IMG/VR virus record: IMGVR_UViG_3300027969_000065 | Origin: an uncultured virus (IMG/VR IMGVR_UViG_3300027969_000065) | Lineage: Duplodnaviria; Heunggongvirae; Uroviricota; Caudoviricetes; Demerecviridae | Reading direction: 5' to 3' (one strand) | Length of the DNA: 34,634 nucleotides | Part shown: in pieces, positions 1,882 to 34,634 of the stretch | How the letters are laid out: the number at the start of each line of letters is the position of its first letter | Position numbering within the stretch: position 1 is the stretch's first letter | Position numbers and translations under genes: made by a program | Notes under the pieces: model-generated | What the model was told of the DNA's origin: nothing | What the model saw: the letters and a program-made list of their open reading frames with translations, nothing else | Databases searched by the model: none

Positions 1882-1882
1882 A

Positions 1883-2401: not shown

Positions 2402-2442
2402 AGCAAGTTCCTAAAAAGGAGAAATCTGATAAACTAAAAAGT

Positions 2443-4239
2443 TTAGAATGTACCGCCGTCGATGGTGGTGGTAGGACTTAAATAGTCAGTGCCGTCTACT
2501 GCAGCTGTAAACGCCGAAGTACCGTTGCCTTTGACCAAGCCAGTTAAAGTTGTAGTGCCTGTGCCGCCGTATGCTACTGCTAGTGTAGCAGAAAGACCTG
2601 CTGCAGTACCGGTGGTGTTTTGATTGAACGTAGGCCAAGTAAATGTGCCGGTGCTGAAGTTACCGGAAGCAGGTGTGCCTAGAGCCGGAGTAATTAGAGT
2701 GGGAGAAGTTAAAGTAGGAGTAGTTAAAGCAGGTGAAGTATTAAGTACTACAGAGCCGGTTCCAGTACTAGTAGTTACTCCGGTACCTCCGTATGCTACA
2801 GCTACTGTGGTGGCACTCCAAGTACCTGTATTAATTGCACCCAGTGTAGTAATAGTAGACTGTCCAGCATAGTTACCAGCAATATCAATGCTGTCCGCAT
2901 TAACCGTAATACGATTTGCAGTACCAATTACATCAATACTATTACCTGTTTTGGTAAGACCTGTGCCTGCAATAACTTGGCCTGCACCTGAAAACTGTGT
3001 AAAAGTTAAAGCAGTTGTGCCTACTAATACTACGCCGTCATTGGTACATACCCAGCCAGTATCAGCATTAAGTGTACCTTCTTGCACAAACAAGAATGTG
3101 CCGCCGGTGATTTCTGAACTACCGGCATCTGCATCTGTAGCGCGTGCCCAAGATCCAGAAGCAACTACATAAATACCGTTTTCAGATTGAATAGATTGAT
3201 TCTTAACTAGTACGCGGTCATTGGCAACTAAAGATACCGAATCGATGGTTTGTAAACCACTCAAAGTAATATTAGATGCTGTTGTTGCTGCGCGAACTGC
3301 GTCTTTTACTGACAATCCCTGACGCGTAGCGTCAACATATGCTTTGGTTGCCGCATCTTGCGCTGAGGTAGGATCTGCTACACCTGTGATTTTTTGACCG
3401 TTGAAAGCTACTGCAGAATTAGGCAAAGCAAATTGATCTAGCCTGCTGGTGCGTACCTGAGTATCAAAGTCACTGATCTTACTTGCTGTAAGAGTTGGAA
3501 TATCTCCGGCAATTAAACTAGTACCTGAGGTCGCTAAACCCTTGGCATTAATTGTTACTTTTGGATATGTACCTGCTACCGCAACTGTTGCTAAAGTAAG
3601 GGCAATTGAGGTAGTACCAGTGCCTGTGGCATCGCCGCTAACACTGATGCTTTGATTAGCTGTTAAATAGGTATTAGTATCTAAACTCCAAGTATCTAGT
3701 GCTGTTTTCTTTAGCAGTCCACTTGTACCTGCAAGCGATCCAATTGCAGTTAAATCTGCGTCTAGTGGTTGAGCATCTGTAATTCCGAAACCACTTAAAG
3801 TTGTAGGATTAGTACCTGCGGTAACTAATCCTTTGGTATCCACTGTTACAGACTTATAAGTACCAGCAGTAATTGCACTATTTGATACTAGGTAGTTTTG
3901 ATTTCTAACATACTCAGTAGTAGCTGCTCTAGTACTACTATCTGAAGTTAACTGAGTAGTAAAGGTATTAATACCACTAAATGTATTATCACCGCTATGA
4001 GTATTATTAGCACTAAAAGTTTTTGTTCCACTAATGGTTTGGTTGCTGGTAAGTGTAACAAAAGCACCTGAGCCTGCAATAGCATCTACAGTAGTTGCTG
4101 TGCCTCCTGCTCCGCCAGTGCCTTTACCATAGTAAAGAGTATTATCTACTTCATTGAATGCTAGTTCAGCATTGGCTAGACCTGTGGGAGCACCTGTGGC
4201 CCCTGTAGCTCTACGTTTAATACGGATTGTATTTGCCAT
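2443..4239 (-). CDS. Long tail fibre protein
   Basis: ATG at 4239 follows AGGAG. Mtd-N-like start (IRIKRR...AELAFNEVDNTLYYG); fibre repeats (AGTYKSVTVDTKGLVTAGTNPTTLSGFGITDA); YadA-stalk-like KITGVADPTSAQDAATKAYVD; VRAATT...LQTIDSV...DRVLVKNQ...ENGIY fibre domain; ends IDGGTF. Confidence 0.85.
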   Translation of the reverse strand: MANTIRIKRRATGATGAPTGLANAELAFNEVDNTLYYGKGTGGAGGTATTVDAIAGSGAFVTLTSNQTISGTKTFSANNTHSGDNTFSGINTFTTQLTSDSSTRAATTEYVRNQNYLVSNSAITAGTYKSVTVDTKGLVTAGTNPTTLSGFGITDAQPLDADLTAIGSLAGTSGLLKKTALDTWSLDTNTYLTANQSISVSGDATGTGTTSIALTLATVAVAGTYPKVTINAKGLATSGTSLIAGDIPTLTASKISDFDTQVRTSRLDQFALPNSAVAFNGQKITGVADPTSAQDAATKAYVDATRQGLSVKDAVRAATTASNITLSGLQTIDSVSLVANDRVLVKNQSIQSENGIYVVASGSWARATDADAGSSEITGGTFLFVQEGTLNADTGWVCTNDGVVLVGTTALTFTQFSGAGQVIAGTGLTKTGNSIDVIGTANRITVNADSIDIAGNYAGQSTITTLGAINTGTWSATTVAVAYGGTGVTTSTGTGSVVLNTSPALTTPTLTSPTLITPALGTPASGNFSTGTFTWPTFNQNTTGTAAGLSATLAVAYGGTGTTTLTGLVKGNGTSAFTAAVDGTDYLSPTTTIDGGTF

Positions 4240-12400: not shown

Positions 12401-15400
12401 ACCTAGGGATTCTAGGTCGCTTTGTAGGCCCGTTAACTTTGTAGTTAGTAGATCAAAACCATTAAATATAGTATCTTTTAACTTATTTTTAGTGTCTTCT
12501 AATACTGCTTCGAATGCTCCTAAGCCCTTGGTAGCTAATTCTGCTATAGAAGCTTTGGCATCATTTGCTGCTGCTTCGAATGCTCGTAAACCATCAGTAG
12601 CTAGTGCTGCTATAGAAGCTTTGGTATTAGCTAACTCTGTTTCTAGTAATCTTAAACCCTCTGTAGCAAGGGATGCCAAACTATCTTTGAGTTCAATTAC
12701 TTTAGCTTCAAAGGCTCTTAATCCTTCTGTAACGGCTGATGCCAAAGCATTTTTAGCATCATTTACTGCAGTTTCAAAAGCTCTTAGTCCTTCTGTTGCT
12801 AGTACCGCTATTGCAGTTTTAGCATTAATTGCTTCGGTTTCTAATAATCTAAAACCATCGGCAGCTGTTTTAGCTGCTTCGGCTTTAAGAGTATTTAACT
12901 GATTCTCAAGGGCTTTTAAACCTTCGGTAACCAATGTTGCTAAAGCTGCTTTAGTTGCTTTAGCTTCTGTTTCTAAAGTTGCTAAGCCTGATTTAGCAGC
13001 AGATAATAAGGCTGCTTTAGCAGTATCTGCAGCTGTAGTAACATTCTTAAACCCGTCTAATAAAGCCTGAGTAGCTTTGTCTAAATCTAGCGAAGCTAGC
13101 TTTAAGGTTGTTATTAAATCAAATAAAGGTTTATTAGTTTCAGCAATTGCATCGCGTTCTTTATTTCGAGTAAAGATTAGTTTCTCGGATTCACTCATAA
13201 ACTTAGTTGCTGATTCTGTATTAGCGTCAGAAACTTGTTTAATTAAATCCTCATATTCTGCAGTAACCTTGATAAAAGATTCTGATACTAAATCTAGCTG
13301 ATGACGTAGTTCAATGGCTGCAGGGGTAGTATTTTGCGATAGTGTTAGATATAGTGATTTAAATTCTGTTTTAGTATCAACGATACCCTCAGCATCTTTT
13401 GCTATAAAGCCTTGCTCTTTAGCTATTCTTGTGATATCAGTCATGCTAGCAGTGACTTTAGCTGTAATGGGCGCTAAACGCTCTGCTTCTGTTAAAAAGT
13501 TATCTGCAAAGAATTTAACATGTTCTAAGAACTTGTCTAAACCACCTGCAGCATCTGCCATAGCTTGAGTAATAGCAATACTAGATTCGGTTAATACTCC
13601 TGAAGCATTAAGTCCGGCTAGTCCGATACTGTTTAAAGATAAGTTAATTTTTTCGTTGGTGTCAATTACTCGGGTAACTGTTTGCAGCATGCCTTCACCG
13701 AATTTCTGGAATTTGGTTAAGTTGGCAAATAGTCCTCTAGTTGTTTCATCTAGGATACCACTAACAATAGAATTGAACTCTTTTTCTAAATCTGCACCTT
13801 TTAATCCGCGTAAGCTTGCAAATTTATCGATATTAACAGTACCTAGTTTCTCTATAACTTCTACAGCAGTTTGACCTAGTTTAGCACCACTTTCAATGAA
13901 CAACTTACCCGCATTCTGAAATACTTCAGAAATGGATTTGGTTAAACTATCTTCTAGTACTACTGCTTGATCTGTAACACTTGCGCTAGTTGAGGAAAAG
14001 AATAAGAAACTATCTTTGCTAGTAGTTTTTACAGTTTCAAAACCTTGAATAGCACCTTTAAAATTTTCCATTATTTCTTTGAAAGTACCAGTGAACTTGA
14101 TTCCGCTGTCTAAAATTTGTGTAGTAGTAGAGCTACCAAATAATCCACCTAAGATATTGAAACCACTAGTACCTTCCTGAGTACCTAGGGCAGAGCCTTT
14201 GGTAAGACCTACCGTACCATAAATACCAATTGCTGCTTTACCTATATTTTGGTCAATCGAAGTCAATAGAGTTACCATCTTATTGTCATAAGATAAACCC
14301 TCTACTTGAGTAGCATTTAATAATTCAATAGAATTTTTAATGGATTCTGACTTAGCACTGGAATCTCCTAATACTCCGCCACCTGTATCTGTTTTAACAC
14401 CGTTTACATACGCTTGTCCAGCTCCGAGACTTTGACGATCTTCTGAAGTTTTACCGGCAGTAGATACTGCGGCAGTTCCTCCTGCTCCTAAAGCACTTAA
14501 TAAACCTCCTATAACTGCAGCGGTTGCTGCTCCCGCTACAAGATTCATTGGGAAAGGACCAGTAATAGCTGTTATTACTGCCTTACCTCCTGCTATAATA
14601 GCTTCGCCAATATTTGCAGATGTTCTGGTTGCTGAATTAGCAACCGACACACCAGTTTTAGTAGTATCAGATACCATTTCTGCTAAATCCATGCCTATTT
14701 TAAACATATGCATAGCTTTTTCTACTGCTGCTAGTGCTTTGTATGCGAAAGTTTTCTCAGCAAATAAGCTCTTAGCACTGCCTACTATTTTAGTATTCTT
14801 TTCAAGTTCAGTTTTTGCAGAATCTGAAGCATACTTCTTGTCCATTGCTAGCTTTTTATCGTTAGACTTCTTTTGGTCGCTTTCGTCTCCGAAAGATGAC
14901 ATAAAAGAAATTTCTTCTTCAACTGCTGCTTTGTCTTTGGCGTATTTAGTATCTAAACCTAGTTGCTGTTTTCTAGCATCTTCTACTGCAGTTACTCCAG
15001 CTTTTAAACCTGCTCCAAGCTTGGTACCAAAGTCTCCGAAAGCGCCTGATAAGCTAACTCCTAGGCTGTCTATTTTCTTAATTAAATCGTCGAAAGCTCC
15101 GACTTGTTTGCTTACATCAATAGAGGCTTGCGCAGCTACCATATTGGCTTCAAAATTAGTTTTTGCTATTGCTGCTGCTGCTGAGGCTGTATCTGAAGTT
15201 TCTCTTAATGCTTTTTGATAATCTTTTTCAGCTTGAATTCGGGCATCACTGCGTAACTTTTCTGCTTCTGCTAATTCCGCTGGACCTATTGTACCTGCAG
15301 CCGTAAAACCAAAATCTCCGAATGTAGCTTGACCTGGTTTAGCTACAATTGCTGCTGCTGCTGCTTCTGCTCTTTGTTTTTCTGCAAGCGCAGCCCTACT

Positions 15401-18400
15401 AGCAGCAGCTGCAGCGCTTGCTATATCAGAAGTTTCTTTTGCGTAGTTACGCTCAAGTTTAGCTAATTGGTTTCTTCCGGATGCAACAGCATATTCTTCA
15501 TTACTAATTGCAAGTATATTCTTTCTTGTATCTAGCTCACTTTGATTAGCGTCTATTCTGGCAATTTCTAGCTGTAGTCTTTGATCCGCTAGATTCTTTA
15601 GTACTGTTGCGGCTTTAGTTTCAATGTCCGCTTGCTTAGTAATATCAGCAATATTTCTACCTAGTTTAGCTGCTACATTTGATAATTCTTGCAACTTTAC
15701 TTTTCTGTCTAAAAGTTCATTTTCTAATGCTTGATTCTCTGCGACTTTGGTTTGATCTTGTGTCGCATCTTTTCTAAGTCTGGTAAATTTTTCAGCTAAC
15801 TGTGCGCGTTCATTATCTAATTGTAAAGATTTTTCCCCTTCTATCTGTTCAGCAGCTGCATTAGCAAGACGTTGAAAGAACATTGAATCACTAGCACTGG
15901 ATAACTGTTGCAGTACTTTTAAGTTATGTTCATTAAAAGTAATACTATAGTTAATTAAATCATTAATATTTGTATATTTTTGTTTAATTTCTTCTAGTGC
16001 AGTATTAAGTATAACTACTTTTTTATTATATGCTTCTTGAGTATTTGCAGTTTTTAGCGCTTCACCAGATATAGCTTGAGTTCTAATTAAGGCTGCTTTA
16101 TCCCTATCTTCTTGGTCTTTACTCAGCTGTAATTTCTTGTACTGTGCCATATCTACTTTTCCTGCAACAGTCAAGTCTAGGGCACCTCTAGTGGCAGACG
16201 TAGCACGAGTAAGATTTGGCTTTTCTTCATTTAATCTTTGTAATTCTAGCTCTAATGTTTTAACAGCTGCGGGCGATTTACCTAATCTGGCCTCTCTTAA
16301 ACGCATTTCAGTAAGCTGTATCTGTTGTACATTAGTATTTTCTGCAGTAGCAGCAGCCTGTAACTTACCCATCAAAGTTACTTCTTCTTGAGATCTTATT
16401 AGCTGTAACATTATGTTGTTACTAGCTATTCTTAAATCAATTTCTTTTACCGCTACCTCACCTTTTAATTGGATACCTTGAATATTAGTCAAAGCATTTG
16501 CTACTGCTCCACGTAGTTTTAGTGCTGCTTCTGCTGTTTTTAACTCAAATCCTTTACCAATTAATTCTAATCCGTTTTTAAAAGCATTGAACCCTAAGTT
16601 ATTATATTTCTCTACTTGTTCTGCTTGTAATGCTAATAAAGATATGGCCGCACCTTTTCTTCTTAAAATTTCATTGTCTACGGCGGCTTTATTGTCTTGT
16701 ACTTGTTTTTGTTTAGCTTCTGATAGTTTAGATAATGACTCTGAACTTAAATCAGCTTGTCGGGCACCTTGAGCACCTACTACCCTACCTGTACCTTCCC
16801 CCAGACTTCCAGTTCCTGGGCCACTAGCTTGTTTTTGTATTTCAACAAATTTTTTCTGATTACTAGTTAAAGCTATTAAAGCTTTATCATTTTCGTTATA
16901 TTGAATTTGTAGATCTTTAAATATTTTGGAGTTTTTTACTAGTTCTGCACCTTGACTACCAAATGCTTTGGCTGCATCTGGGTTACTAGCAATTCTTACT
17001 AATTCTGCAAAAGCAGTAGAAGCATTTTTAAATGTTCTATCTAAACCCTCTCCGACTGCTATCAGTGCCAGTCCATACTTAGTAATAGGATCGCCAGGAA
17101 TTAAACTAGTAGATAGTTCTTGCCCTGTTTTAGCTAGGGCCTCTAGTGCTGCTTTTGAGGCTCCTGCATCTGATGCTAGATTTGAAAGTTTAAGACTAGA
17201 ACTTTTTTCTGCGGCATTTAACGCAGTAATGGTTTCAACAGAATATGTTTTAAGATTGGATAGTGCTTCTTTGGTTACTTCTTTTACACCAGTAAGTTCC
17301 TTAACTTTTTCAATATACGCTTCTTTTAAGTTACCAGTAGGCATAGCTTCGATATTGGCAAGAATAGAGGCATTTAAAGTCTTACTTAAAGTATCTAATC
17401 TAGATTTACCAAAAACACCTGCAAAAGAATCCAGTAAATTATCCCAAGCATTGGAAACTAATTCTATTTCTTTGAATTTTTTTACTGATGCATCTACTGA
17501 ATCAGTAATCCCTTTCATAGCATTAGCACGTGCAGTTAAACTTTCTGCACTCATCCATTTAGAAGTATCTTGCTTAGTTAAAGCATCTAATGTTTTGGGC
17601 AAAAATGCAATATTTTCTTTAGCCGCAGCTATCGAAGAATCAAATAATCCTATGTCTTTATTAGCAGCACTTAACCAGTGATCTAATAATTCAAAACTAC
17701 CTACAACTATTCCTAATACTTGACCGGCTGTTCCTAAAGCACTTATTGCATTTGATATACCTCCTACAAGCAAGGAGAATCCGCCTTTTGTTAAAGTAGT
17801 TGCAGCGTCTAGTGTACCCATTTTTTGGGTTACATTGGTAATTACCTGTTCCATTTTTTGCGCACCGGAAGCATCAAATACAGGTTTACCTGTTTTGTCT
17901 ACTACTCCTTGCATAGTTTTAACTTGTAATACCCCTGCTTGGGCATCTCTTACATTCTGTCTTAGTTCCGCGAATGCAGCTATAGGCCCCTTAATTGCTG
18001 CAGTTTGGCCTTGCATGGCTATAATACTATTCTTTGAAAACTCTGCTGTTGCTTTGTCAGACTCTCTTACTAGTCTTTGATAGTTACTAAACCTATTGTT
18101 ATCAGAGAGCATAGCAGCTTTACCTGCTTCGGCTCCTGCGTTCAGCATGCCTTGATTAAAATCTTTACGCATGGCTATAATTTGATCATAGTGTGCAGCA
18201 TACGCTGCAGCATCTTTACGCTGGGTAGAACTTAAACTACTAGACAATTTATCTCTTTGCGCTGCTAAAGCGGACATTTCTGCATCTGTTAAAGCTTGAG
18301 GAGCTTTCTTTAATAGCGCTCCAATATCTGGGCCGCCTTTGGAACCAAGATATGATCCGCTGCCGAATTTAGCTTTGGCATCTGCTATTACTTTTTCACC

Positions 18401-19612
18401 TTTTTCTGTAACTGCTCTAGAAGTCTCATAGTACTTCTGTGCTTGCAAGGTAAGCCTGTCATCATTTTTAGCCCCAGCTGCTAACTGGGCTGCTGCAGCT
18501 GTATTCATTTTCACCATGGACTCAGCTTGTAACTGATCCATGGTACTTCTAAATTTGCCTATAATAGGAATGGTACTTTTAATGAAAGTAGCCCCTATTA
18601 AGCCTATAATTCCTAATAGTGCTGTAGGGCTTTGTGATAAAAATCCAACAAGTGGCCCAAGTACTTTATTAACTAGTTCTAAACCACTTTGAGTTAAGTT
18701 TGCTAAACTAGCAGCAAGTTTAGCGTACGGATTAGCAATTAAGTTAATTTCTCCAAACTTATCAATACCTTCTTTTAGTACTGCGTTGGCGAATGCTTGA
18801 CGTTTTTCAAAGTCAGTAAGTGAGGTTACGCTCTTACCCATTTTTCGAGCATATTCTTCTGTGGCTGGACCGATTTTAGTGAATATGCCTAATTCATCCA
18901 ATAGTTCAGGCTCTAGTTTAGTTACACCTCTACTCAATCTATCAAATGCAGTACTTAAATCTAAACCTAGTGCTTGAGATGCCTTCTTTGCTACAGTGGC
19001 TAAATCTTCGATATTTTTTGTAGACAGTCCTGCGGAACTGGCTGAGGCAACCGACTTCATAGCATCTGATGCAGACAGTGATCCTTCAGTAATATCTACT
19101 AAGCGTTTGGCTAAATCACTTAAATTTTTACCAGAAGATGCACCTAGTTGATCTAGACCTTTGGTAAGATTGCTTAAATCTCCAGCTTTGGACAAAGCAG
19201 TAAATGCAGCAGTTGCTGCGTAAATATTAGCTGCGAAGGTAGCATATAGACGTACTAATCCACCCAATCCTTGAGATTGTTCTGCAAAGTTGCTTGCTGC
19301 AGATCCGGTAAGGCCTGCAGTTCCGCGTAGAGCACCGTACTGTGCTTGTTCTCCAAGAGCACGACTACTTGCAGTTCCGCCTTGAGGTGCAATTGCGGTA
19401 GTGCCTCCGGCAACGGCTGCGCGAGGTGTGCGCGCAATACCTGCGGATCCACCCATGCCAAAAGGCATGCTGTTTCCGCCTACATTAATTTTAGCAGCTA
19501 TTGCAGCAGTGTTTACTAATAAGTCTCGTAAGATTTCTACATTCTTTGTTACTTTTGCTGTGGAACCATTGTCTGATACGTTAATACCAATATTTACTGA
19601 ATTATCTGCCAT
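9404..19612 (-). CDS. Tape measure protein (~3,400 aa)
   Basis: Start MADNSVNIG at 19612 follows AGGAG. T5 pb2-like N-terminus (GLGGLVRLYATFAANIYA...RGVTKLEPELLDELGI); helical Ala/Lys-rich body; C-terminal GLMGEAGPEAIMPL motif; follows the tail chaperones. Confidence 0.92.
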   Translation of the reverse strand: MADNSVNIGINVSDNGSTAKVTKNVEILRDLLVNTAAIAAKINVGGNSMPFGMGGSAGIARTPRAAVAGGTTAIAPQGGTASSRALGEQAQYGALRGTAGLTGSAASNFAEQSQGLGGLVRLYATFAANIYAATAAFTALSKAGDLSNLTKGLDQLGASSGKNLSDLAKRLVDITEGSLSASDAMKSVASASSAGLSTKNIEDLATVAKKASQALGLDLSTAFDRLSRGVTKLEPELLDELGIFTKIGPATEEYARKMGKSVTSLTDFEKRQAFANAVLKEGIDKFGEINLIANPYAKLAASLANLTQSGLELVNKVLGPLVGFLSQSPTALLGIIGLIGATFIKSTIPIIGKFRSTMDQLQAESMVKMNTAAAAQLAAGAKNDDRLTLQAQKYYETSRAVTEKGEKVIADAKAKFGSGSYLGSKGGPDIGALLKKAPQALTDAEMSALAAQRDKLSSSLSSTQRKDAAAYAAHYDQIIAMRKDFNQGMLNAGAEAGKAAMLSDNNRFSNYQRLVRESDKATAEFSKNSIIAMQGQTAAIKGPIAAFAELRQNVRDAQAGVLQVKTMQGVVDKTGKPVFDASGAQKMEQVITNVTQKMGTLDAATTLTKGGFSLLVGGISNAISALGTAGQVLGIVVGSFELLDHWLSAANKDIGLFDSSIAAAKENIAFLPKTLDALTKQDTSKWMSAESLTARANAMKGITDSVDASVKKFKEIELVSNAWDNLLDSFAGVFGKSRLDTLSKTLNASILANIEAMPTGNLKEAYIEKVKELTGVKEVTKEALSNLKTYSVETITALNAAEKSSSLKLSNLASDAGASKAALEALAKTGQELSTSLIPGDPITKYGLALIAVGEGLDRTFKNASTAFAELVRIASNPDAAKAFGSQGAELVKNSKIFKDLQIQYNENDKALIALTSNQKKFVEIQKQASGPGTGSLGEGTGRVVGAQGARQADLSSESLSKLSEAKQKQVQDNKAAVDNEILRRKGAAISLLALQAEQVEKYNNLGFNAFKNGLELIGKGFELKTAEAALKLRGAVANALTNIQGIQLKGEVAVKEIDLRIASNNIMLQLIRSQEEVTLMGKLQAAATAENTNVQQIQLTEMRLREARLGKSPAAVKTLELELQRLNEEKPNLTRATSATRGALDLTVAGKVDMAQYKKLQLSKDQEDRDKAALIRTQAISGEALKTANTQEAYNKKVVILNTALEEIKQKYTNINDLINYSITFNEHNLKVLQQLSSASDSMFFQRLANAAAEQIEGEKSLQLDNERAQLAEKFTRLRKDATQDQTKVAENQALENELLDRKVKLQELSNVAAKLGRNIADITKQADIETKAATVLKNLADQRLQLEIARIDANQSELDTRKNILAISNEEYAVASGRNQLAKLERNYAKETSDIASAAAAASRAALAEKQRAEAAAAAIVAKPGQATFGDFGFTAAGTIGPAELAEAEKLRSDARIQAEKDYQKALRETSDTASAAAAIAKTNFEANMVAAQASIDVSKQVGAFDDLIKKIDSLGVSLSGAFGDFGTKLGAGLKAGVTAVEDARKQQLGLDTKYAKDKAAVEEEISFMSSFGDESDQKKSNDKKLAMDKKYASDSAKTELEKNTKIVGSAKSLFAEKTFAYKALAAVEKAMHMFKIGMDLAEMVSDTTKTGVSVANSATRTSANIGEAIIAGGKAVITAITGPFPMNLVAGAATAAVIGGLLSALGAGGTAAVSTAGKTSEDRQSLGAGQAYVNGVKTDTGGGVLGDSSAKSESIKNSIELLNATQVEGLSYDNKMVTLLTSIDQNIGKAAIGIYGTVGLTKGSALGTQEGTSGFNILGGLFGSSTTTQILDSGIKFTGTFKEIMENFKGAIQGFETVKTTSKDSFLFFSSTSASVTDQAVVLEDSLTKSISEVFQNAGKLFIESGAKLGQTAVEVIEKLGTVNIDKFASLRGLKGADLEKEFNSIVSGILDETTRGLFANLTKFQKFGEGMLQTVTRVIDTNEKINLSLNSIGLAGLNASGVLTESSIAITQAMADAAGGLDKFLEHVKFFADNFLTEAERLAPITAKVTASMTDITRIAKEQGFIAKDAEGIVDTKTEFKSLYLTLSQNTTPAAIELRHQLDLVSESFIKVTAEYEDLIKQVSDANTESATKFMSESEKLIFTRNKERDAIAETNKPLFDLITTLKLASLDLDKATQALLDGFKNVTTAADTAKAALLSAAKSGLATLETEAKATKAALATLVTEGLKALENQLNTLKAEAAKTAADGFRLLETEAINAKTAIAVLATEGLRAFETAVNDAKNALASAVTEGLRAFEAKVIELKDSLASLATEGLRLLETELANTKASIAALATDGLRAFEAAANDAKASIAELATKGLGAFEAVLEDTKNKLKDTIFNGFDLLTTKLTGLQSDLESLGTDGFNKLKGGVDNVKNSIKESYKAAVETQKNASKAFIDSLKTVGTGIKDFLKTVAGGDLGIADQATKYKALRTEFDKTLKLAKAGDEIALGKLPQLSQDLLTAAKEQSSTKLEYARTFADVTSQLGDISAVLDTKIQTAEKDAADGVAALETSSLSTADALKLANDELAKWTDAIEKSGVAVEIKAEADAKLQLSTASGALTALDTARTSLNTWLDLIGSDAAAVLTKTDPATLTELKATFATLRTNIADVNTTINTYIKDNNEILKTAGYTGTDLLKNLPVTLTVANTKTQIAATVKLLKDADDAVVGYIAGTKTFLASKEGGGFTAEEIDRILKRTDSPLTTANTNDKLNALKKILKDADDAIIGYIAKTATFLASKEGGGFTAEEIDRILKRTDSPLTKENTQDKLDAAVKSLKDADYALIKYISGTTEFLNNNGFSPAEIDKILKRTDSPLTKENTKDKLVEAAGKLTAAENAVTSYINGSTEFLKTHGFSQEEIDKILKRTDSPFTIENTGNKINAAVKALKDSEDALTKYIGGTVEFLTTHGFSQEEIDKILKRTESPLTKENTQDKLNAAVLVLNAAETAITKYITDITTFLRNNGFSQEEIDKILKRTDSPLTIANTKDKLATAVGVLKDADNAIIAYIAGMKTFLADKANGGFSPEEIDKILKRTDSPLTIENTKDKFDAAVKAIKDAETAIVTYIASTNTILTTAGFSADELLKRTNILTLDATVTDAKKKYDDAVIEVGKWADKLKELGVSFTPYGSPADVGLTALAGKFTTAQTAFNTANTAITDWVGRMTSLVNSISLPGVPVIPPVAVPVVTTPGTGTVTSPVTKTHERPPAPGSNYTWNQTGPNADDGYWSYYQMEIGGPFALGGAFDYGNMMKFAAGDSFSNSIVDKPTKFRMGLMGEAGPEAIMPLTRGPDGSLGVTAQMPDFGNSNEANMVLVNEIKELRNEVAKLRVIASQNEYNTRKTKETLQLVTVGGEYMQTKSVT
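10220..11600 (-). repeat. Coding tandem repeat, 55/58 aa (165/174 bp): 7 strong copies plus 2 degenerate
   Basis: The EIDxILKRTxSP core recurs at about 10371, 10545, 10710, 10875, 11040, 11205 and 11379 (spacings 174, 165, 165, 165, 165, 174). Confidence 0.95.
12335..13060 (-). repeat. Coding tandem repeat, 22 aa (66 bp), 11 copies
   Basis: Register xxG[LF]xx[LF]ExxxxxxKxx[LI]xxxx, e.g. TEGLRAFETAVNDAKNALASAV / TEGLRAFEAKVIELKDSLASLA. Confidence 0.9.
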
Positions 19613-19668
19613 ATATGCTCCTGGTGTTGCCAGTGTAAAAATTTTATGTGTCAATCACGTTTGCTACA

Positions 19669-28851: not shown

Positions 28852-30156
28852 TTAAATGGTATAAGTATACAGTGCGTAGCGCAAAGCATCTGCAATGTGA
28901 GAGTTAATGTCGTGTTCGGGTTTTTCACGTATTAGTTGAGCGTTTTTACTCCACTGATACTGGTCTAACATTTTCAAAGTATGTGCGCAGTGTGGAGCTA
29001 CCAACAAACGTCCTTGATCCACAATTGTTTGAACATAAGCAATTCCTTCTAGTACTTGCTTTTTGGCTTTTATACTGGCGATGTTGTAAGTATAAGCCAA
29101 GTCGCCTGCAAACTGAGCAGCTGCTGAATCGATGAATATTGATTCAATGCCGTAACGCAAGACGAGTTCTCCAATTGCTTGAGCATGGCCTGAAGTTGTG
29201 GCTTCAGACTGTTGATACTCGTCCACGACATGAAATTTGTCCAGTTTAGGGTCGTACGCTACCACCACAAAAGCTGTAGGATCACGGTAACCTGGATCTA
29301 GTCCTGCAATGTATTCCACACCATCACTGTGCAAAAATTCCTGTATACAAGTCTGGGCGTCAAAGCTCGCAAAAATCTGACCTTCGAATGTATTGAAGCT
29401 GGCCAAATACTCTTGGTCGAATTCTGCTTTTGACATTGAGCGACGAGCTTCGGCAACGTCTTTTTCAGTCATGCGTTCGTTTTCGGTATAGTCTGCTTGC
29501 AAGCTAATCCACTCAGGATACTCCTCTGAAAACCCACGACTATAAAATGTAGAGAACCAATTGTGCTTGCCACGTGGTGTTGAAATGAAAATGGCTTTTG
29601 CATTGCTGCGGTCTAGTGTAGGACGCAGCGAAACATTAAAAGCTGCTTCACCGTCGGATCCCAGAGCTGCTTCATCGAATATGATTAAGTTGTAGGATCG
29701 GCCCACTGTGGAATCAACTGTGGACAACGATCCCATTCTGATTGTAGAGCCATTGGCAAGTTCTATTACTTTATCCTTTAGATTGTCTTTCTCCACTTCT
29801 AGGTCGAAGTGTTTGATTAGTTTGCGTTGCAGCTCAAAACTAATAGACGATAAATTATAGTTCGGCGACATAATCAGCACATTGGATCCGGGTATTAACA
29901 CTACCAGCTGACCAATGATGTTGGCAATGAATGTTTTGCCTAGACGTCGTGATAGTGCAGCGCAAATGAACCTGTACCTGGGATCATTGACTGCGTTGAT
30001 TAAAGCAATCTGAGGACGGTTCAGTTCGTCGTAAACATTTTTGTTTTCAAATGTGAGTAGTTTCAAGTAGTTTGCAATAGGCAGCTTGATAAACCGTTCG
30101 GCTGCATCGTACTCGGTTAAATTGATTTTATCCACATCTCTAGACACCAGCAACAT
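28852..30156 (-). CDS. terL: Terminase large subunit
   Basis: Walker A variant SRRLGKT, Walker B IIFDEAA, FISTPRG, RNase H-like GLDPGYRD, HIADALRYAL. Confidence 0.95.
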   Translation of the reverse strand: MLLVSRDVDKINLTEYDAAERFIKLPIANYLKLLTFENKNVYDELNRPQIALINAVNDPRYRFICAALSRRLGKTFIANIIGQLVVLIPGSNVLIMSPNYNLSSISFELQRKLIKHFDLEVEKDNLKDKVIELANGSTIRMGSLSTVDSTVGRSYNLIIFDEAALGSDGEAAFNVSLRPTLDRSNAKAIFISTPRGKHNWFSTFYSRGFSEEYPEWISLQADYTENERMTEKDVAEARRSMSKAEFDQEYLASFNTFEGQIFASFDAQTCIQEFLHSDGVEYIAGLDPGYRDPTAFVVVAYDPKLDKFHVVDEYQQSEATTSGHAQAIGELVLRYGIESIFIDSAAAQFAGDLAYTYNIASIKAKKQVLEGIAYVQTIVDQGRLLVAPHCAHTLKMLDQYQWSKNAQLIREKPEHDINSHIADALRYALYTYTI

Positions 30157-31381
30157 TTAAACCTCGTACTAGTGTTTGCATGTTTGACTTCCAGGATTCT
30201 AGCCGCCGCAGCTCTAAACGTGTGCGTACTTCTTCGAACACTTGAGCCCACGAACCAGGATTGCGAATTACTTTAACTGAGTCGTACCAGATATTTTTTT
30301 CGCCCATGGAATTGTTTCCCCATCTAAAATCAGTTTCTTTTAAAGGCTGCAACATCCAAGTTTCTTTACCCAGCGATCCGGCTAAATGCACCAGAGAAGT
30401 ATCCACGCTAATGATCAAGTCCAGTCCGTTTACTATTTCAGCAGACTCAGACCACGAACCAGAATTCAGCGCAGTGACTCCGCGCACTGAGGGAGCTCCA
30501 GGACGTATGCTGTATAAATCTCCGAATTCCAGTAAGTCTGAAAAATATACAGGCAATGTACTTCTGTAACGATTGTTCGCGTGAGTAGGCGAACCTGCCC
30601 ACTCAATGCCAATTTTCAGCTTGGTACCAGCAAATTTACGAGCACCAAACTTTCCACGCAGCCAATCATCTGGTGCCGAGTCAAATACGCTGGCTAAACT
30701 ACAAATGGGGATGCTGCAGGTAGCACCGCTGTCCTGCACGTCTTGACAAACTCTGAACTCTGAAAATACCGTTTCTAATTCCACTGGGCACTGAACCCAA
30801 ACTTCGTCGAAGTATTTTTCCAGCTGGTTTATGTATCTGCCAAACATAAACTTGTCGCCTAAACCCTGTTCTGCTAACACTACAATGGATTTGCCCGAGG
30901 TCACGCCGTCCCAGCGCGGAATGCTTTGATCTATGCGTGTGGCGTTGCTGCGTTTGAAGCGGTACTCGTACATTTTCCAAGCGGAGGCGACGTCGACGGT
31001 TTCTAAAGAACAGTGCTTGCGCAGCAAGGCATTTGAGTAATTCCAAATGGAATCAAAGTGCAGTGGATTTTTTTCCAGTGCTGCGGTGTAGTACGCAATG
31101 GCAGCGTCGTCGTTGCCGGACATGTACTGCAGCAAACCTAAATTGCCTAGTGCATTGTCGTATTCACCGAAAGTGTTGTCTGTGAAAGGAGTGTCCGAGG
31201 CGTTGGCTTTGATGTAACACTTTAAGGCTTCTGAGTCTTGACCCAGCAATCTGTAGCAGTTGCCCATGTTTAAGTAACATTCTTTGAAACCATATTCTCG
31301 AAGTTGACGTTTGTAGAACTGCAGTGCTTTTTCAGGATTTTGGTTTTCTAAGTACTTGGTTGCACGGTTATAGTTTTGCAT
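30140..31381 (-). CDS. TPR-repeat protein with GT-B glycosyltransferase (GT9-like) domain
   Basis: N-terminal TPRs (CYLNMGNCYRLLG..EALKCY; ALGNLGLLQY..AIAYYTAAL); AWKMYEYRF, EQGLGD, KIGIEWAGSPTH, LDLIISVDTSLVHLAGSLGKETW, DFRWG...WYDSV. Confidence 0.85.
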   Translation of the reverse strand: MQNYNRATKYLENQNPEKALQFYKRQLREYGFKECYLNMGNCYRLLGQDSEALKCYIKANASDTPFTDNTFGEYDNALGNLGLLQYMSGNDDAAIAYYTAALEKNPLHFDSIWNYSNALLRKHCSLETVDVASAWKMYEYRFKRSNATRIDQSIPRWDGVTSGKSIVVLAEQGLGDKFMFGRYINQLEKYFDEVWVQCPVELETVFSEFRVCQDVQDSGATCSIPICSLASVFDSAPDDWLRGKFGARKFAGTKLKIGIEWAGSPTHANNRYRSTLPVYFSDLLEFGDLYSIRPGAPSVRGVTALNSGSWSESAEIVNGLDLIISVDTSLVHLAGSLGKETWMLQPLKETDFRWGNNSMGEKNIWYDSVKVIRNPGSWAQVFEEVRTRLELRRLESWKSNMQTLVRGLNVAGV

Positions 31382-31392
31382 TTTAGTTTTGG

Positions 31393-31869
31393 TTAGATTT
31401 TATTCGAAATTAAGCGCTCAATGAGATTTCCATAATTGGAACCGCCTCCCTCGTTAATTTGCACATTAACCTGTGACTTGATAGAGTTTGAACGCAGCTT
31501 TTCAAGCTGCAGTTCTTTATCTAAGGTTTCCATTGTCATTTTGTGAGAAAGTGCTAAAATCTCGATGATATCTTTGTTTGATCCCACACCGGCTTCGTCC
31601 ATTTCCTGGAACTTTTTCGAGATAATGGCATCCATGGCTTTGCGGAGTGTAAAGCGATTGTTGAAGCCCATGTCGAAAAACACTTGGTCTACATAAGCTT
31701 TGACCTCGCGGCGGCCCAAAATTTGTGAAACTGTTTCCAACGGAACGTCCAGTTGATCTGCGACTTTTTGGGCATTTTGAATTGTGAGATACGCATTCGC
31801 TACTTCTAGTGCTTCAGGTGAGATCTGCAGCACTTCAGCTGGATGATGGGTGGCGAGTTGTCGGGTCAT
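31393..31869 (-). CDS. terS: Terminase small subunit, T5-like
   Basis: ISPEALEVANAYL...REVKAYVDQVFFDMGFNNR...QVNVQIN...NYGNLIERL; first gene of the late operon. Confidence 0.85.
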   Translation of the reverse strand: MTRQLATHHPAEVLQISPEALEVANAYLTIQNAQKVADQLDVPLETVSQILGRREVKAYVDQVFFDMGFNNRFTLRKAMDAIISKKFQEMDEAGVGSNKDIIEILALSHKMTMETLDKELQLEKLRSNSIKSQVNVQINEGGGSNYGNLIERLISNKI

Positions 31870-31903
31870 AGGTAAACCTTATTATTTTTCTTGTTATGCG
31901 TTT

Positions 31904-31932
31904 ATTATAGCAGTTTAGCACACGGACTACAA
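31904..31932 (-). promoter_or_regulatory. Promoter for the terminase operon
   Basis: TTGTAG-N17-TATAAT, TG extension, AAAAAATTT UP-like tract. Confidence 0.8.
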
Positions 31933-32011
31933 GTGTAAATTTTTTAAGCTTTTACGACGAGTTTTACCGACTAAACTGGTCGAATGATTACGGTTTAGAT
32001 ACAGTTTAGGG

Positions 32012-32461
32012 TCAGGTGGCTTTAAATAAGAAACTACCTCTTAATTCCTGCGCTTTTATAGTATAAGCATTACCTGCTTCCTCTGCTGTATCAAATCTGC
32101 CGAGATAAAATTCTTTTCTATTATACTTTATTTTAGCTTCAAATTTTCCACGATGTTCCCTTACTCCAACCGGTAAAGTACTCCTCTTTGTAAAGTTTCT
32201 ATTATTAGAATTAAGTAATCGTGTAGCTTCCCGCAAATTTTCTATTCTATTATTTAATTTATCTCCATCTATATGATCTATAACTAAATTATCAGTTATC
32301 GGGCCATTAAACATTTCCCAAATTATGCGATGCACTCTATATTCCTTACCCTCTATAACTACTCTGTTGTACCCATCTTTATTAATACTTGAATATATAA
32401 AATTCGTATTTTTTCTGTATAGTAATCCATCATCATATTTAAATAGACTATGCAAGTTCAT
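32012..32461 (-). CDS. Free-standing HNH homing endonuclease with C-terminal AP2 domain
   Basis: VHRIIWEMFNG...IDHIDGDKLNNRIENLR; GVREHRGKFEAKI...YLGRFDTAEEA; markedly AT-rich. Confidence 0.9.
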   Translation of the reverse strand: MNLHSLFKYDDGLLYRKNTNFIYSSINKDGYNRVVIEGKEYRVHRIIWEMFNGPITDNLVIDHIDGDKLNNRIENLREATRLLNSNNRNFTKRSTLPVGVREHRGKFEAKIKYNRKEFYLGRFDTAEEAGNAYTIKAQELRGSFLFKAT

Positions 32462-32486
32462 TGTAATCTCCTAAGTTATATTACAT

Positions 32487-32514
32487 ATTATATACTATTG
32501 AAAAATTTTATCAA
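32487..32514 (-). promoter_or_regulatory. Promoter of the HNH-AP2 gene
   Basis: TTGATA-N16-TATAAT upstream of AGGAG and the ATG. Confidence 0.65.
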
Positions 32515-32659
32515 GTATATTTTTAAGATGCCAGTAGGGGCTTAGGCACCGAAAGTAAGGTCAAATTTTCCAAAAATATACCGTGTGGGTGGGCCCCTAT
32601 TATATAGGGTAAACCCTGGTCTGATAACCCCCCATATACAGGGGTCAACATACTAGTCA

Positions 32660-32693
32660 ATTAATCAATAAGGGTTTCCCCTTATTGATTAAT
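32660..32693. terminator. Perfect 15-bp hairpin closing the leftward early genes
   Basis: ATTAATCAATAAGGG-TTTC-CCCTTATTGATTAAT (GAAA loop on the minus strand), overlapping the stop at 32689. Confidence 0.6.
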
Positions 32694-32961
32694 ATTCGCA
32701 TTCGTTGATATAATCGAATGCTTCGTCGACCATACTCTCGACAATATCGTCGAAATCTTCAGTACCAGTCAAGCGCATGAACAGCTGTTCTGCAAAACCC
32801 TGGGGCAAATCAAGGCTAGCCTTGATGGACAACAACGATTCGAAGCGGTTGATTGTGTCCAGCGCTTCCGCACTGGAGAATTCGTGGCCCTCGTCGAAAT
32901 CTTGAACCAGAATGTCGCTGCAAGCCTCAGCCCAATCTTGGATCATGTCGATGGTGTTCAT
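32689..32961 (-). CDS. Small highly acidic hypothetical protein
   Basis: 90 aa, about 23 D/E versus 3 K/R; has its own consensus promoter. Confidence 0.75.
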   Translation of the reverse strand: MNTIDMIQDWAEACSDILVQDFDEGHEFSSAEALDTINRFESLLSIKASLDLPQGFAEQLFMRLTGTEDFDDIVESMVDEAFDYINECEY

Positions 32962-32995
32962 TTTTTGCTTTCTGTGGTTGGTTGGTATGGTGTTT

Positions 32996-33030
32996 ATTAT
33001 AGGGGCTTGAGCATTTTTGTCAAGCCCCTA
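32996..33030 (-). promoter_or_regulatory. Palindromic promoter, cassette 1
   Basis: TTGACA-N16-TATAAT overlapping the inverted repeat TAGGGGCTTGA-N9-TCAAGCCCCTA. Confidence 0.9.
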
Positions 33031-33042
33031 CAGACTGTGGGG

Positions 33043-33261
33043 TTATTCGCGTGATGTGGCCCACTCCCACGCGCGCGTGAAGGTGAACAAGGCATCAGCC
33101 AGCGCATCACTGGCACGACTAAAAGCCTGCAAGGCGGCCGCATCCCGAACCAGCCCCTGGCTGTCATAGGCTGCAGCCTCAGCTGCAGCAAAGGCTGCGC
33201 GGCACTCGCGCACCTTCATCCCGGCGTTGCGCAGGACATTGATTCTGTAGGCTGCTGACAT
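33043..33261 (-). CDS. Small Ala-rich helical hypothetical protein
   Basis: 72 aa; AAAGG before the ATG; own promoter; stop codon lies within the repeated junction. Confidence 0.65.
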   Translation of the reverse strand: MSAAYRINVLRNAGMKVRECRAAFAAAEAAAYDSQGLVRDAAALQAFSRASDALADALFTFTRAWEWATSRE

Positions 33262-33313
33262 GGTAGACCTTTCGAGTCCGTTGGGGTTTGCGTTTTGCTG
33301 CCCCGATGAATGT

Positions 33314-33350
33314 ATTATATGCGATTTTGCAGGGGCTGTGCAAGCCCCTA
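33314..33350 (-). promoter_or_regulatory. Palindromic promoter, cassette 2
   Basis: TTGCAC-N18-TATAAT with AGGGGCT-GTGCA-AGCCCCT inverted repeat. Confidence 0.75.
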
Positions 33351-33362
33351 CAGGCTGTGGTG

Positions 33363-33683
33363 TTATACTGTTGTGTCGTCCCGCTCAAGCCAGACGCTGA
33401 CCCACGAGAATGACGCACCCTCTGGCAGGGTTGTTGTGCCTTCGGGCAGCCGTGGGCCTTTATACTGGGCAACATACAACCAATCGCTTTGCGTCAGCGT
33501 GACGCTCACTCGATTCATGGGCACGCCGATCAGGGCGGCCGTATCGGCATGTCCAACAGCCGACACGAATCGGCCGCTGTCGAGCACGCGTGCCGGACGA
33601 TCCACGGCCACCATGCGAAGGCGTGGCAGGTCAGCCGGGCTGACCATGTTGAGACTGAAGGCATTGGCGATGAATGTTGTCAT
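33363..33683 (-). CDS. DUF1874 / STIV B116-like protein, AcrIII-1-family ring nuclease candidate
   Basis: NAFSLNM, FVSAVGHADTA, NRVSVTL, VAQY.GPRLPEG motifs in the family's order and length; AGGA SD; own promoter. Confidence 0.82.
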   Translation of the reverse strand: MTTFIANAFSLNMVSPADLPRLRMVAVDRPARVLDSGRFVSAVGHADTAALIGVPMNRVSVTLTQSDWLYVAQYKGPRLPEGTTTLPEGASFSWVSVWLERDDTTV

Positions 33684-33716
33684 GATGTTTCCTGTCTGTT
33701 GGTTGGTATGGGGTTT

Positions 33717-33752
33717 ATTATAGGGGCTTGACGCCTGGTGTCAAGCCCCTAT
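33717..33752 (-). promoter_or_regulatory. Palindromic promoter, cassette 3
   Basis: TTGACA-N16-TATAAT overlapping ATAGGGGCTTGAC-N7-GTCAAGCCCCTAT. Confidence 0.9.
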
Positions 33753-33822
33753 TGTTTGTGAGGGCAATAGGCCAGGCCTATCGACGCCAGGCCGCCCATA
33801 GGCTTAGCCTATGGGGGCGCCA

Positions 33823-33852
33823 ATTTTACCATGCCCGCGTATGCGCTGTCAA
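33823..33852 (-). promoter_or_regulatory. Additional leftward promoter without an adjacent ORF
   Basis: TTGACA-N18-TAAAAT with TG extension. Confidence 0.6.
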
Positions 33853-33936
33853 TAGGTATATACCCTTGGACGCTCACCTGGCCCGATAATGGTATAAACG
33901 ATTTATACGGTACCTGGTCAAAGACCCTACAGCAAT

Positions 33937-33973
33937 TAGGGGCTTGACAAGCTGCGGTTTTCGATGGCATAAT
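33937..33973 (+). promoter_or_regulatory. Divergent rightward promoter with the same TAGGGGCTTGAC half-site
   Basis: TAGGGGC-TTGACA-N18-CATAAT with TG extension, about 30 nt before the ATG at 34003. Confidence 0.8.
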
Positions 33974-34002
33974 GCATTCATTGATTCAAAACAAGGGTTT
34001 AT

Positions 34003-34230
34003 ATGAGCAAGCTCAAAGACATTATCTCTGACTATGATGAAACTTCGACGGCGAGTATCATCGCGTATGCCCGAGATTATTTCAAGGATACTTTCGGCTT
34101 CAGGCCTGAAGGTATTCAAAGCGAATCGGATACTGATATTCGCGCACATTATATTCATATGATTATGACGTGCGATGATTATCTTATTAGAACCCGCGAC
34201 ACTCGCTATACTGATGGATGGGACGAATAA
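34003..34230 (+). CDS. Hypothetical early protein
   Basis: 75 aa, contains DYFKDTFGFRP; AAGGG SD; downstream of the promoter. Confidence 0.7.
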   Translation: MSKLKDIISDYDETSTASIIAYARDYFKDTFGFRPEGIQSESDTDIRAHYIHMIMTCDDYLIRTRDTRYTDGWDE

Positions 34231-34373
34231 TGGCACGCATGAATATGGCGAAAGCCATTTATCTCTATAATATTACTAAAGGGTTCGCATTATTGGAATC
34301 CGGTGATAAAGCCGCAGCGTCGGCATACTTTGTTCGCGCACAATATGCGCTTGATATAATGGAGGGATTCTAA
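34230..34373 (+). CDS. Hypothetical 47-aa protein
   Basis: TAATG coupling; MARMNMAKAIYLYN...DIMEGF; below the ORF track cutoff. Confidence 0.55.
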   Translation: MARMNMAKAIYLYNITKGFALLESGDKAAASAYFVRAQYALDIMEGF

Positions 34374-34374
34374 A

Positions 34375-34455
34375 ATGATTTGGGCGGTGTTGGGTTTCTT
34401 TTCGGTTCTTTTGATTGCCCTAGCGGGCATGTTTACTATTATGGGGGAATGGTAA
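34375..34455 (+). CDS. 26-aa single-transmembrane peptide
   Basis: GGAGG SD; MIWAVLGFFSVLLIALAGMFTIMGEW; one base from each neighbour. Confidence 0.55.
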   Translation: MIWAVLGFFSVLLIALAGMFTIMGEW

Positions 34456-34456
34456 T

Positions 34457-34634
34457 ATGTTGCACGATATCTGCGTGAATCCGGTTGACGGGCGCATATT
34501 GCCCGATGATATTCGAGAATTGCAGGATCAGTTTAACGTGAATTTGAATGATGCCGATGAATGGTTTGATTACTATTCGTCGGGATCGGGGCATGTTACT
34601 ATTATCGATGAAATTGAATTCTGGGAGCGATATA
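34457..34634 (+). CDS. Acidic hypothetical protein (truncated by window)
   Basis: GGGGGA SD-like sequence; MLHDICVNPVDGR... open to the window end. Confidence 0.55.
   Translation, partial: MLHDICVNPVDGRILPDDIRELQDQFNVNLNDADEWFDYYSSGSGHVTIIDEIEFWERY

Follow-up and report, generated by a model that had tools for sequence, protein, structure and literature searches.

A probable shuffling array of promoter-stem-loop cassettes between the control region and the terminase genes of an uncultured siphovirus-like phage

Introduction

The stretch of DNA analysed here, called the window throughout, comprises the 34,634 nucleotides of the IMG/VR record IMGVR_UViG_3300027969_000065, from an uncultured virus, and close to its right-hand end three small genes (A, B and C) follow one another on the minus strand, each behind a promoter of its own that is built into a palindrome. 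An earlier note, made from the letters of the sequence, had regarded them as single-gene cassettes for early counter-defence, shuffled by recombination and repressed together through their palindromes. The question that the locus raises is what such a repeated promoter palindrome would do between small genes: serve as a place of exchange, bind a repressor, or act on the transcripts that run through it. The answer that we consider probable is that the locus forms a small hyperplastic region, placed between a divergent early control region and the terminase genes of an uncultured siphovirus-like phage from freshwater, and that it behaves as a shuffling array of the kind known from promoter-stem-loops (PeSLs), here outside the T4-like phages.

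Anatomy of the array

The motif TAGGGGCTTG occurs exactly at six places, 33000(+), 33021(-), 33341(-), 33721(+), 33742(-) and 33937(+), and is absent from the rest of the 34,634-base window; when up to one mismatch is allowed the matches are nine, against 1.85 +/- 1.31 expected, a number that none of 100 shuffles reached. Its final three bases are the TTG of the -35 box in three leftward promoters and one rightward promoter. The minus-strand promoters before A and before C read TAGGGGC-TTGACA-16 nt-TATAAT, and the one before B reads TAGGGGC-TTGCAC-18 nt-TATAAT. Against the sigma70 consensus, the promoters of A and C (P_A and P_C) score 12/12 and that of B (P_B) 10/12, with 11/12 for the rightward promoter P_R, the upstream leftward promoter P_L0 and P_HNH, the promoter of a neighbouring homing-endonuclease unit; promoter-like sites number 20, as compared with 6.6 +/- 2.7 in shuffles.

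In the 81-nt junction from B to A (type 1; 32962..33042, minus strand), a stop-codon linker is followed by TAGGGGC, the -35 box TTGACA (33023..33018), a 16-nt spacer, the -10 box TATAAT (33001..32996) and a CA-rich, unstructured leader; an 11-bp palindrome, whose 11-nt arms (33000-33010/33020-33030) match at 100%, encloses the -35 box and touches the -10 box. The promoter and leader of C (33684..33752, minus strand) are again of type 1, with the -35 box TTGACA at 33744..33739, a 16-nt spacer and the -10 box TATAAT at 33722..33717, and the inverted repeat around the -35 box, which also reaches the TATAAT, has 16-nt arms that are 94% alike (33720-33735/33737-33752). The 101-nt junction from C to B (type 2; 33262..33362, minus strand) is made of a stop-codon linker, the hairpin TAGGGGCT-TGCAC-AGCCCCTG (10-bp stem, 5-nt loop), in which the -35 box TTGCAC (33343..33338) lies, the -10 box TATAAT (33319..33314) and a conserved leader, CATCGGGGCAGCAAAACGCAAACCCC...GAAAGGTCTACC-ATG, that is not significantly structured (z -0.96). 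The hairpins of P_A, P_B and P_C fold at -22.3, -18.9 and -23.5 kcal/mol (z -6.2, -3.2 and -5.6).

Two further repeats run through these units. A promoter and leader sequence of 34 bp recurs at 32977-33010 and 33698-33731 with one base different, opening a 66-nt repeat that is 82% alike, and the junction repeat at 33021-33046 and 33341-33366 is 92% alike, its TTA triplets at 33043-33045 and 33363-33365 being the stop codons of B (33043..33261, minus strand) and C (33363..33683, minus strand). The earlier note had described most of this layout, namely a motif abutting the -35 box of four promoters (three leftward, one rightward), an inverted repeat over the -35 box and into the -10 box of two of them, the 34-bp repeat with its single mismatch and a 25-bp junction repeat ending in a stop codon, and all of these were found again where it had placed them; the hairpin of P_B, the promoter P_L0 and the high G+C content of the block were absent from its list.

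Exchange among related arrays

Near and distant DNA searches of the GenBank phage collection gave no match to the window, and the nearest record (G001) is a 19-kb fragment that does not cover the array region. In IMG/VR, the small terminase subunit used as a query returned 261 relatives, the closest of which (L121-L124) are 97-99% identical; the array is present in L121, L123 and L124, while the sequence of L122 stops too close upstream of the terminase gene to show it. With a 19-mer taken from the B leader, nine loci were found in metagenomes, seven of them in this clade; the matches in L233 and L236 were due to chance, inside unrelated coding sequence. The small terminase is 97-99% identical in the four array relatives that have it (L121, L123, L124 and L234).

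Nine arrays were reconstructed and read from the control region toward the terminase gene, and they show eight different gene orders: C-B-A followed by the HNH homing endonuclease in the window and the identical L231, C-B-X-A in L121, C-B in L124, C-W-Y in L237, C-W-B-A* in L238, C-W... in L235, C-B... in L239, Y-A2 without C in L234, and C-Y-A2 in L123. C starts the array in eight of the nine. The search for different open reading frames (ORFs) between the same repeats, which the earlier note had suggested for the genome and its relatives, found them in the window and in related arrays, with the six exact copies of the window confined to one locus; neither gene content nor gene order is invariant, and the shuffling that the note had predicted is supported by these variable arrays and by their breakpoints.

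These breakpoints, i.e. the boundaries of the insertions, deletions and replacements, fall within the repeated promoters, leaders or stop-codon junctions. The 15 gene-to-gene junctions of the nine arrays measure 78-82 or 101-104 nt, and all of them open at the stop codon (TAA or TAG) with CCCnnCAGCCnG and end at the ATG; CCCnnCAGCCnG is followed by the hairpin, by the promoter and by a leader of one of a few kinds, with AGGA or GAAAGG 6-10 nt before the ATG. Type 2, the C-to-B junction, is the commonest in the relatives. When the window is aligned with L121, the extra 271 nt of cassette X map inside the P_A palindrome, and the P_B junction is identical at 111 of 120 positions, whereas the ORF bodies are 50-88% identical per 40-column block. 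In a three-way alignment, the B-to-A junction of the window tracks the B-to-X junction of L121 up to the loop and its X-to-A junction from the right arm on, the switch point lying within ~10 nt of the right arm of the hairpin. The B-to-A junction of the window is a chimera of the two junctions that flank X in L121, which is the product expected of exchange between direct repeats around X.

Smaller modules also appear in new combinations: C sits behind three leader types in different arrays, and the CA-rich leader of the acidic last gene stays with it, whichever of three promoter-hairpin types stands in front. Synonymous divergence (dS) of the cassette ORFs is 0.4-1.1, as against junctions that are 92-97% identical and a terminase gene next door that differs by a few percent. 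Such old ORF alleles beside a near-identical terminase gene suggest replacement of whole cassettes from a wider pool and not divergence in place, and junctions of 80-100 bp that are far more alike than the ORFs would act as portable homology. The most likely pathway implies self-contained monocistronic cassettes, each consisting of a stop-codon linker (TAA-CCCnnCAGCCnG), a GC-rich stem-loop round the -35 box, a near-consensus sigma70 promoter, a conserved leader and a small ORF, which general homologous recombination between junctions would delete, insert, replace and re-pair, promoter and leader modules moving separately as well; PeSL elements of T4-type phages have been described as exchanging in this way. 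Shuffling of the array is in this sense supported by the arrays compared.

The cassette genes

The gene that most often starts the array, C (106 aa), can be related to proteins of known function. Taken as a single sequence, it matches PF08960 with E 1.1e-5 and 25.9 bits, where the cut-off is 26, and phrog_5063 with E 1.4e-11. Its sequence matches in the PDB are 2x4i, 6scf, 2j6b and 2j85, the solved proteins being SIRV1 gp29, AFV3-109 and STIV B116, and a profile of its homologues matches 2x4i at E 1.5e-6; the homologues number 4603 matches, with PF08960 on 119 of the 120 examined among the matches listed. A structure model built from 47 sequences reached a predicted local distance difference test (pLDDT) value of 93.5, an input of seven sequences having given a poor 58.8. 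With this model, ranks 1-12 of Foldseek are all 2j85, 6scf, 2x4i or 2j6b (template-modelling score 0.59-0.73; E 6.9e-7 for 2j85 and 1.8e-6 for 6scf), followed by Crn2 fusions, and C is ~22-26% identical to the solved proteins in the fold alignments.

The residues point in the same direction. His45 of C stands at the position of gp29 His47, in an aligned GH motif, and is invariant in seven close homologues and nearly so in the 47; N7, S10, T48, R58, Q73 and R78 are conserved among the homologues, and the residues of C that align with gp29 N8, S11, N13, T50, R66, Q81 and R85 are kept. In gp29, according to the part of the preprint on which we draw (Athukoralage et al., bioRxiv 10.1101/778746), His47 is the general acid, the H47A change lowering the rate more than 2500-fold; the same source describes the roles of the residues that contact cyclic tetra-adenylate and reports the AcrIII-1 family both from viruses of archaea and from bacteriophages. 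Taken together, the sequence of C, its conserved residues and its predicted fold argue that it belongs to the DUF1874/AcrIII-1 family, sharing with SIRV1 gp29, STIV B116 and AFV3-109 its size, its predicted fold and the histidine at the catalytic position. C is predicted to be a ring nuclease that would destroy cyclic tetra-adenylate and blunt type III CRISPR signalling; a later preprint, as far as its consulted part goes, questions how generally members of the family act as anti-CRISPRs in their native hosts (10.1101/2023.01.10.523387).

The remaining cassettes are orphans. A (90 aa; 32689..32961, minus strand) is the last gene of the array and strongly acidic, with an isoelectric point of 4.1 and 23 D+E residues versus 3 K+R, and B (72 aa) is rich in alanine. 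Neither has a match in Pfam, PHROG or NCBIfam (nothing above chance in the last), and the ESM Atlas gave no usable lead for either; their families comprise seven protein clusters without names for A, with six representatives in the full HMMER search, and 14 for B, none of them named. For X, W, Y and A2, Pfam and PHROG likewise gave no family. A*, from L238, is a relative of A (44% identical), and an alignment of the A family with A2 by hhalign shows no relation (probability 0.2%). Across all six cassette families the ratio of nonsynonymous to synonymous divergence (dN/dS) is 0.08-0.46, with 0.08 for A against L121 and 0.25-0.46 for B; by these values the cassette ORFs are real genes, with A and B under purifying selection. 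The orphan cassettes, two of them strongly acidic, are plausible candidates for counter-defence factors. Of the claim that the array is made of counter-defence genes, what has gained support is the part that concerns C; A and B have no detectable family.

Role of the hairpins

Wherever there is a stem, it takes in the -35 hexamer, and at this one place four different stems are found: TAGGGGCT/AGCCCCTA and its longer form TAGGGGCTTGA(C)/(G)TCAAGCCCCTA, then TTGCAC/GTGCAA, and lastly GGCTTTCGC/GCGAAAGCC. Variants of the -35 box come with a matching right arm (TTGCAC/GTGCAA versus TTGAC/GTCAA), which indicates that the pairing is conserved and not a fixed word. Strong stems (-16.9 to -22.3 kcal/mol) are found at all 15 gene-to-gene junctions and at one of the nine first promoters, the other eight folding at merely -5.1 to -14.6 kcal/mol. 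Since a transcript starts downstream of the stem of its own promoter, each stem would be present only in read-through RNA coming from the preceding unit. In the proposed mechanism, unmodified host RNA polymerase would read the promoters at once after infection and the hairpins, judging from where they occur, would most likely attenuate or end the upstream transcript, shielding the co-directional late terminase operon. Such shielding of virion genes would be relevant here because the array points into that operon.

The same palindromes could alternatively be operators, where a dimeric Aca-like (anti-CRISPR-associated) repressor of phage or host origin would bind TAGGGGC...GCCCCTA over the -35 and -10 boxes and silence the whole array, as the earlier note had proposed. 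Dyads over promoters are the classical operator layout, and in two promoters perfect dyads of 11-13 bp cover the -35 box and touch the -10 box, the half-site TAGGGGC being also present at the divergent P_R. This P_R, however, is without a second half-site, eight of the nine first promoters are without a strong dyad, the half-sites are spaced by 4, 5 or 15 nt depending on the junction (4 to 15 nt overall) with arms of 7 to 13 bp, and the Y-to-A2 junction has the unrelated palindrome GGCTTTCGC...GCGAAAGCC in the same place. Moreover, the Pfam, PHROG and NCBIfam scans found no helix-turn-helix or other DNA-binding domain in A, B, C, D, X, Y, W or A2. Variable spacing, several stem sequences, and stems that are strong inside the array and weak at its start favour a role as attenuator or insulator (or 3' end), together with recombination homology, over that of an operator; co-repression is unlikely, and on this point the earlier note was not supported.

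Still less probable is that the array merely consists of duplicated strong promoters with functionless hairpins, its variation being due to ordinary illegitimate insertions and deletions in a dispensable region. Accessory regions of phages vary anyway and the motif is limited to one locus, as this explanation would have it, but the boundaries coincide with repeats and one junction is cleanly chimeric, the four stem sequences keep their pairing at the same position and co-vary with the -35 box, and the junctions are much better conserved than the synonymous sites of the ORFs, all of which makes it very doubtful. Least credible of all, to the point of being nearly negligible, is an integron-like system in which the hairpins would be attC-like sites for a dedicated recombinase. 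The imperfect palindromes at cassette boundaries and the single-ORF cassettes in one orientation do recall one; yet the cassettes are each equipped with a promoter, the scan of 29 ORFs of the window turned up neither an integrase nor a recombinase domain, identity extends over a long tract around the crossover, as expected of homologous exchange, and promoter, leader and ORF are exchanged separately.

Several observations weigh against the shuffling, PeSL-like array that we favour. A function could be assigned to one of the three array genes of the window, C. On the coding strand no U-tract follows the stems (CAAAAUCG or UAAUAAAC does), so that the hairpins are not canonical intrinsic terminators, and the timing of the promoters and the function of the hairpins are both inferred, early expression from promoter quality only. 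The AT-rich UP element that the consulted descriptions give for PeSLs is absent, the upstream CCCnnCAGCCnG-TAGGGGC being G+C-rich. In a relative of 64.6 kb the motif is confined to one region, which points to a single hotspot and not to a genome-wide system as in T4-like phages. The assembled contigs of runs X1-X4, which are blind to rare forms, give the order of the window only, with no cassette-skipping joints or circles. Finally, in L123 (a 6.4-kb contig, 1-3300) C-Y-A2 points away from the small terminase gene, which simple repeat-mediated deletion or insertion cannot explain, and three extra G+C-rich ORFs (1828-2700), AATAAGGG...CCCTTATT palindromes and GCGTAAAGCGC repeats lie there between the array and the terminase gene. 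L234 and L237, unlike L123, have the usual co-directional layout, and the arrangement in L123 may have arisen by true inversion, between promoter copies of opposite orientation, or be a chimera of the assembly.

Surroundings of the array

The window corresponds to the virion and packaging half of the phage genome, with all virion and packaging genes on the minus strand. They encode a major tail protein (phrog_3575), a protease-capsid fusion, a portal, T5-type proteins for tail completion, tail termination and head completion (T5_p143 and a tail tube terminator among them), and the large and small terminase subunits. Rightward from the small terminase gene (31393..31869) come the HNH-AP2 gene (32012..32461), A, B, C and the divergent control region, beyond which small plus-strand genes begin at 34003; G+C content is 54-58% in 33001-34000 and ~40% elsewhere in the window. 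One ORF of 3416 aa (9404-19654, minus strand) matches the tape-measure family phrog_3779 with its N-terminal 500 residues and is unusually long for a tape measure. An N4-like phage, in which this ORF would be the virion RNA polymerase and the hairpins its promoters, was considered and ruled out, given the tape-measure match and the siphovirus/T5-like character of the module. Between the small and large terminase genes lies a TPR-repeat protein with a weak glycosyltransferase-9-like C-terminus (30140-31381, minus strand), and L234 has an extra ORF of ~230 aa between the same two genes.

In the control region, P_R (33937..33973, plus strand) consists of TAGGGGC, TTGACA (33944-33949), an 18-nt spacer and CATAAT (33968-33973), with a TG present. 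It has the left half of the palindrome only and no hairpin (fold z -0.37), it would drive the small genes from 34003 on, and the 120 aligned columns over it (window 33994-33875) are identical in L121. At 34200-34634 (plus strand) the contigs of runs X1 and X2 diverge into alternative versions, X1 having two forms of 34416-34537, which suggests that the first rightward genes also vary in the population; the contig of L121 ends, and that of L124 begins, at or within the first rightward gene. In the opposite direction, P_L0 (TTGACA-18 nt-TAAAAT with a TG; promoter 33852..33823, whole element 33755..33852, minus strand) is followed by TTGGCGC and by two hairpins in a stretch of ~70 nt (fold -34.7 kcal/mol, z -2.9). 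It is conserved in L121, L124, L237 and the distant L169, with stem sequences that differ at the same place. An Rfam scan of 31800-34634 gave no match. The stretch behind P_L0 may be a short RNA or a structured leader entering the array.

At the other end, the array closes with a hairpin (32660..32693, minus strand) of 15-bp perfect arms and a 4-nt loop, folding as RNA at -20.4 kcal/mol (z -7.0); it overlaps the stop codon of A, is the final structure before the terminase promoter region, and a hairpin of this type also closes the arrays of L121, L124 and L123. An HNH-AP2 homing-endonuclease unit (32012..32545, ORF 32012..32461, minus strand; PF13392 with E 4.7e-21, phrog_99) of ~30% G+C separates A from the small terminase gene as an insertion; it carries a promoter of its own (TTGATA-16 nt-TATAAT, 32514..32487), and a copy of the motif, inverted and degenerate (TAGGGGCTTA, 32535), borders it. 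The unit is absent from L121 and L124, and in L130, L155, L160 and L128 homologues lie immediately upstream of the small terminase gene. Between the array and the terminase promoter, 32590-32693 contains short palindromes of the type AGGGTAAACCCT or AATAAGGG(N4)CCCTTATT, and in L123 (1200-1810) these have multiplied to at least a dozen copies, beside tandem repeats of GCGTAAAGCGC; the AGGGTAAACCCT/AATAAGGG palindromes may be a packaging-recognition region or a terminase-binding array.

Farther from this clade, in distant relatives whose small terminase is 59-68% identical (L162-L199), 19 of 80 terminase loci keep the short hairpin TAGGGGC-TTGC-GCCCCTA. It lies between two small genes (e.g. L169 5371-5389), ~630 nt upstream of the terminase gene and divergent from it, and one of the small genes resembles a DNA-binding protein. 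A loose promoter pattern searched in IMG/VR gave mostly single chance matches, L026 alone having four among the matches listed, and a stricter hairpin-promoter pattern gave 27 stretches, of which 24 are unrelated AT-rich phages with one copy each. In these ~24 AT-rich contigs (L205-L230) a very similar palindrome, TAGGGGCTTG...AGCCCCTATAAT, adjoins TATAAT just past a stop codon; a GC-rich terminator stem may lie there by coincidence, or these phages may share a portable element, and the palindrome is treated here as a coincidence defined by the pattern.

Implications

If correctly read, the locus would extend the PeSL principle, that is, repeated promoter-hairpin junctions used as homology for cassette exchange, to a phage lineage unrelated to the T4-likes. 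The array is also tied to a recognisable counter-defence gene, which makes the small orphan ORFs that alternate with the AcrIII-1 homologue candidate anti-defence genes. As predicted from its promoters and hairpins, it represents a natural and compact collection of expression units that are very strong and insulated, and the difference between strong internal hairpins and weak ones at first promoters provides a testable prediction on the function of the stem-loops.

A broader and more speculative picture, which we put forward tentatively and would not hold to be likely, is that the promoter-hairpin serves freshwater phages as a portable plug for trading immediate-early counter-defence genes. 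The orphans (the acidic A, A* and A2, and B, W, X and Y) would then be new anti-defence proteins, the acidic ones perhaps mimics of nucleic acids; the richness in G+C would be a footprint of exchange, through foreign origin or GC-biased conversion, and the stem that sequesters the -35 box would be at once a crossover hotspot and an insulator.

Comparison with known systems

Among known arrangements of small phage and bacterial genes, integrons differ from the present array in that here each cassette has its own promoter and the 29 scanned ORFs of the window hold no recombinase domain. In acr-aca operons, anti-CRISPR genes are repressed by an Aca helix-turn-helix protein at inverted repeats of the promoter. 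In both systems small counter-defence genes are preceded by a strong promoter that bears inverted repeats, but here the array yielded no helix-turn-helix gene, each gene and not each operon has a promoter, and the spacing of the dyads is variable. The pre-early or first-step-transfer genes of T5 offer a further parallel: shared are the T5-like virion module (PF25747) and small genes annotated without function, which stand under very strong host-type promoters past the structural block, on its terminase side. The Pfam and PHROG scans, the only test made of homology to the pre-early proteins of T5, found none.

The closest likeness is to the PeSLs, as the earlier note had suggested and as both the promoter-hairpin anatomy and the exchange at junctions now support. 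PeSLs have been described in the T4-type myoviruses RB49/phi1, T4/PST and KVP40/nt-1 (Arbiol et al. 2010, PMC2839356; Comeau et al. 2014, PMC4122927), and in the literature searched the term in its phage sense is used for T4-like myoviruses only. An attenuating or insulating role of their stem-loops, including the guarding of downstream virion genes from early read-through, has been proposed and partly shown (PMC2839356). As far as the consulted parts of these papers describe them, PeSLs and the present array have in common a sigma70-consensus promoter in each intergenic unit, a G/C-tract stem-loop that overlies the -35 and -10 boxes or stands between them, an association with small orphan genes of a hyperplastic region, insertions, deletions and replacements that set near-identical phages apart and have their crossover within the stem-loop or next to it, and the proposed exclusion of early transcription from downstream virion genes. 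On the same partial basis, the two differ in that the phage studied here is not T4-like, having a siphovirus-type tape measure, a major tail protein and T5-type tail proteins, and in that their sequences show no similarity; there is here one locus of two to four cassettes, whereas PeSLs occupy many regions, the stem always sequesters the -35 hexamer, and the cassettes have 48-62% G+C in a genome of ~40%. By this comparison, the locus appears to work like a PeSL region, as a variant of that kind and not as a member of it by descent.

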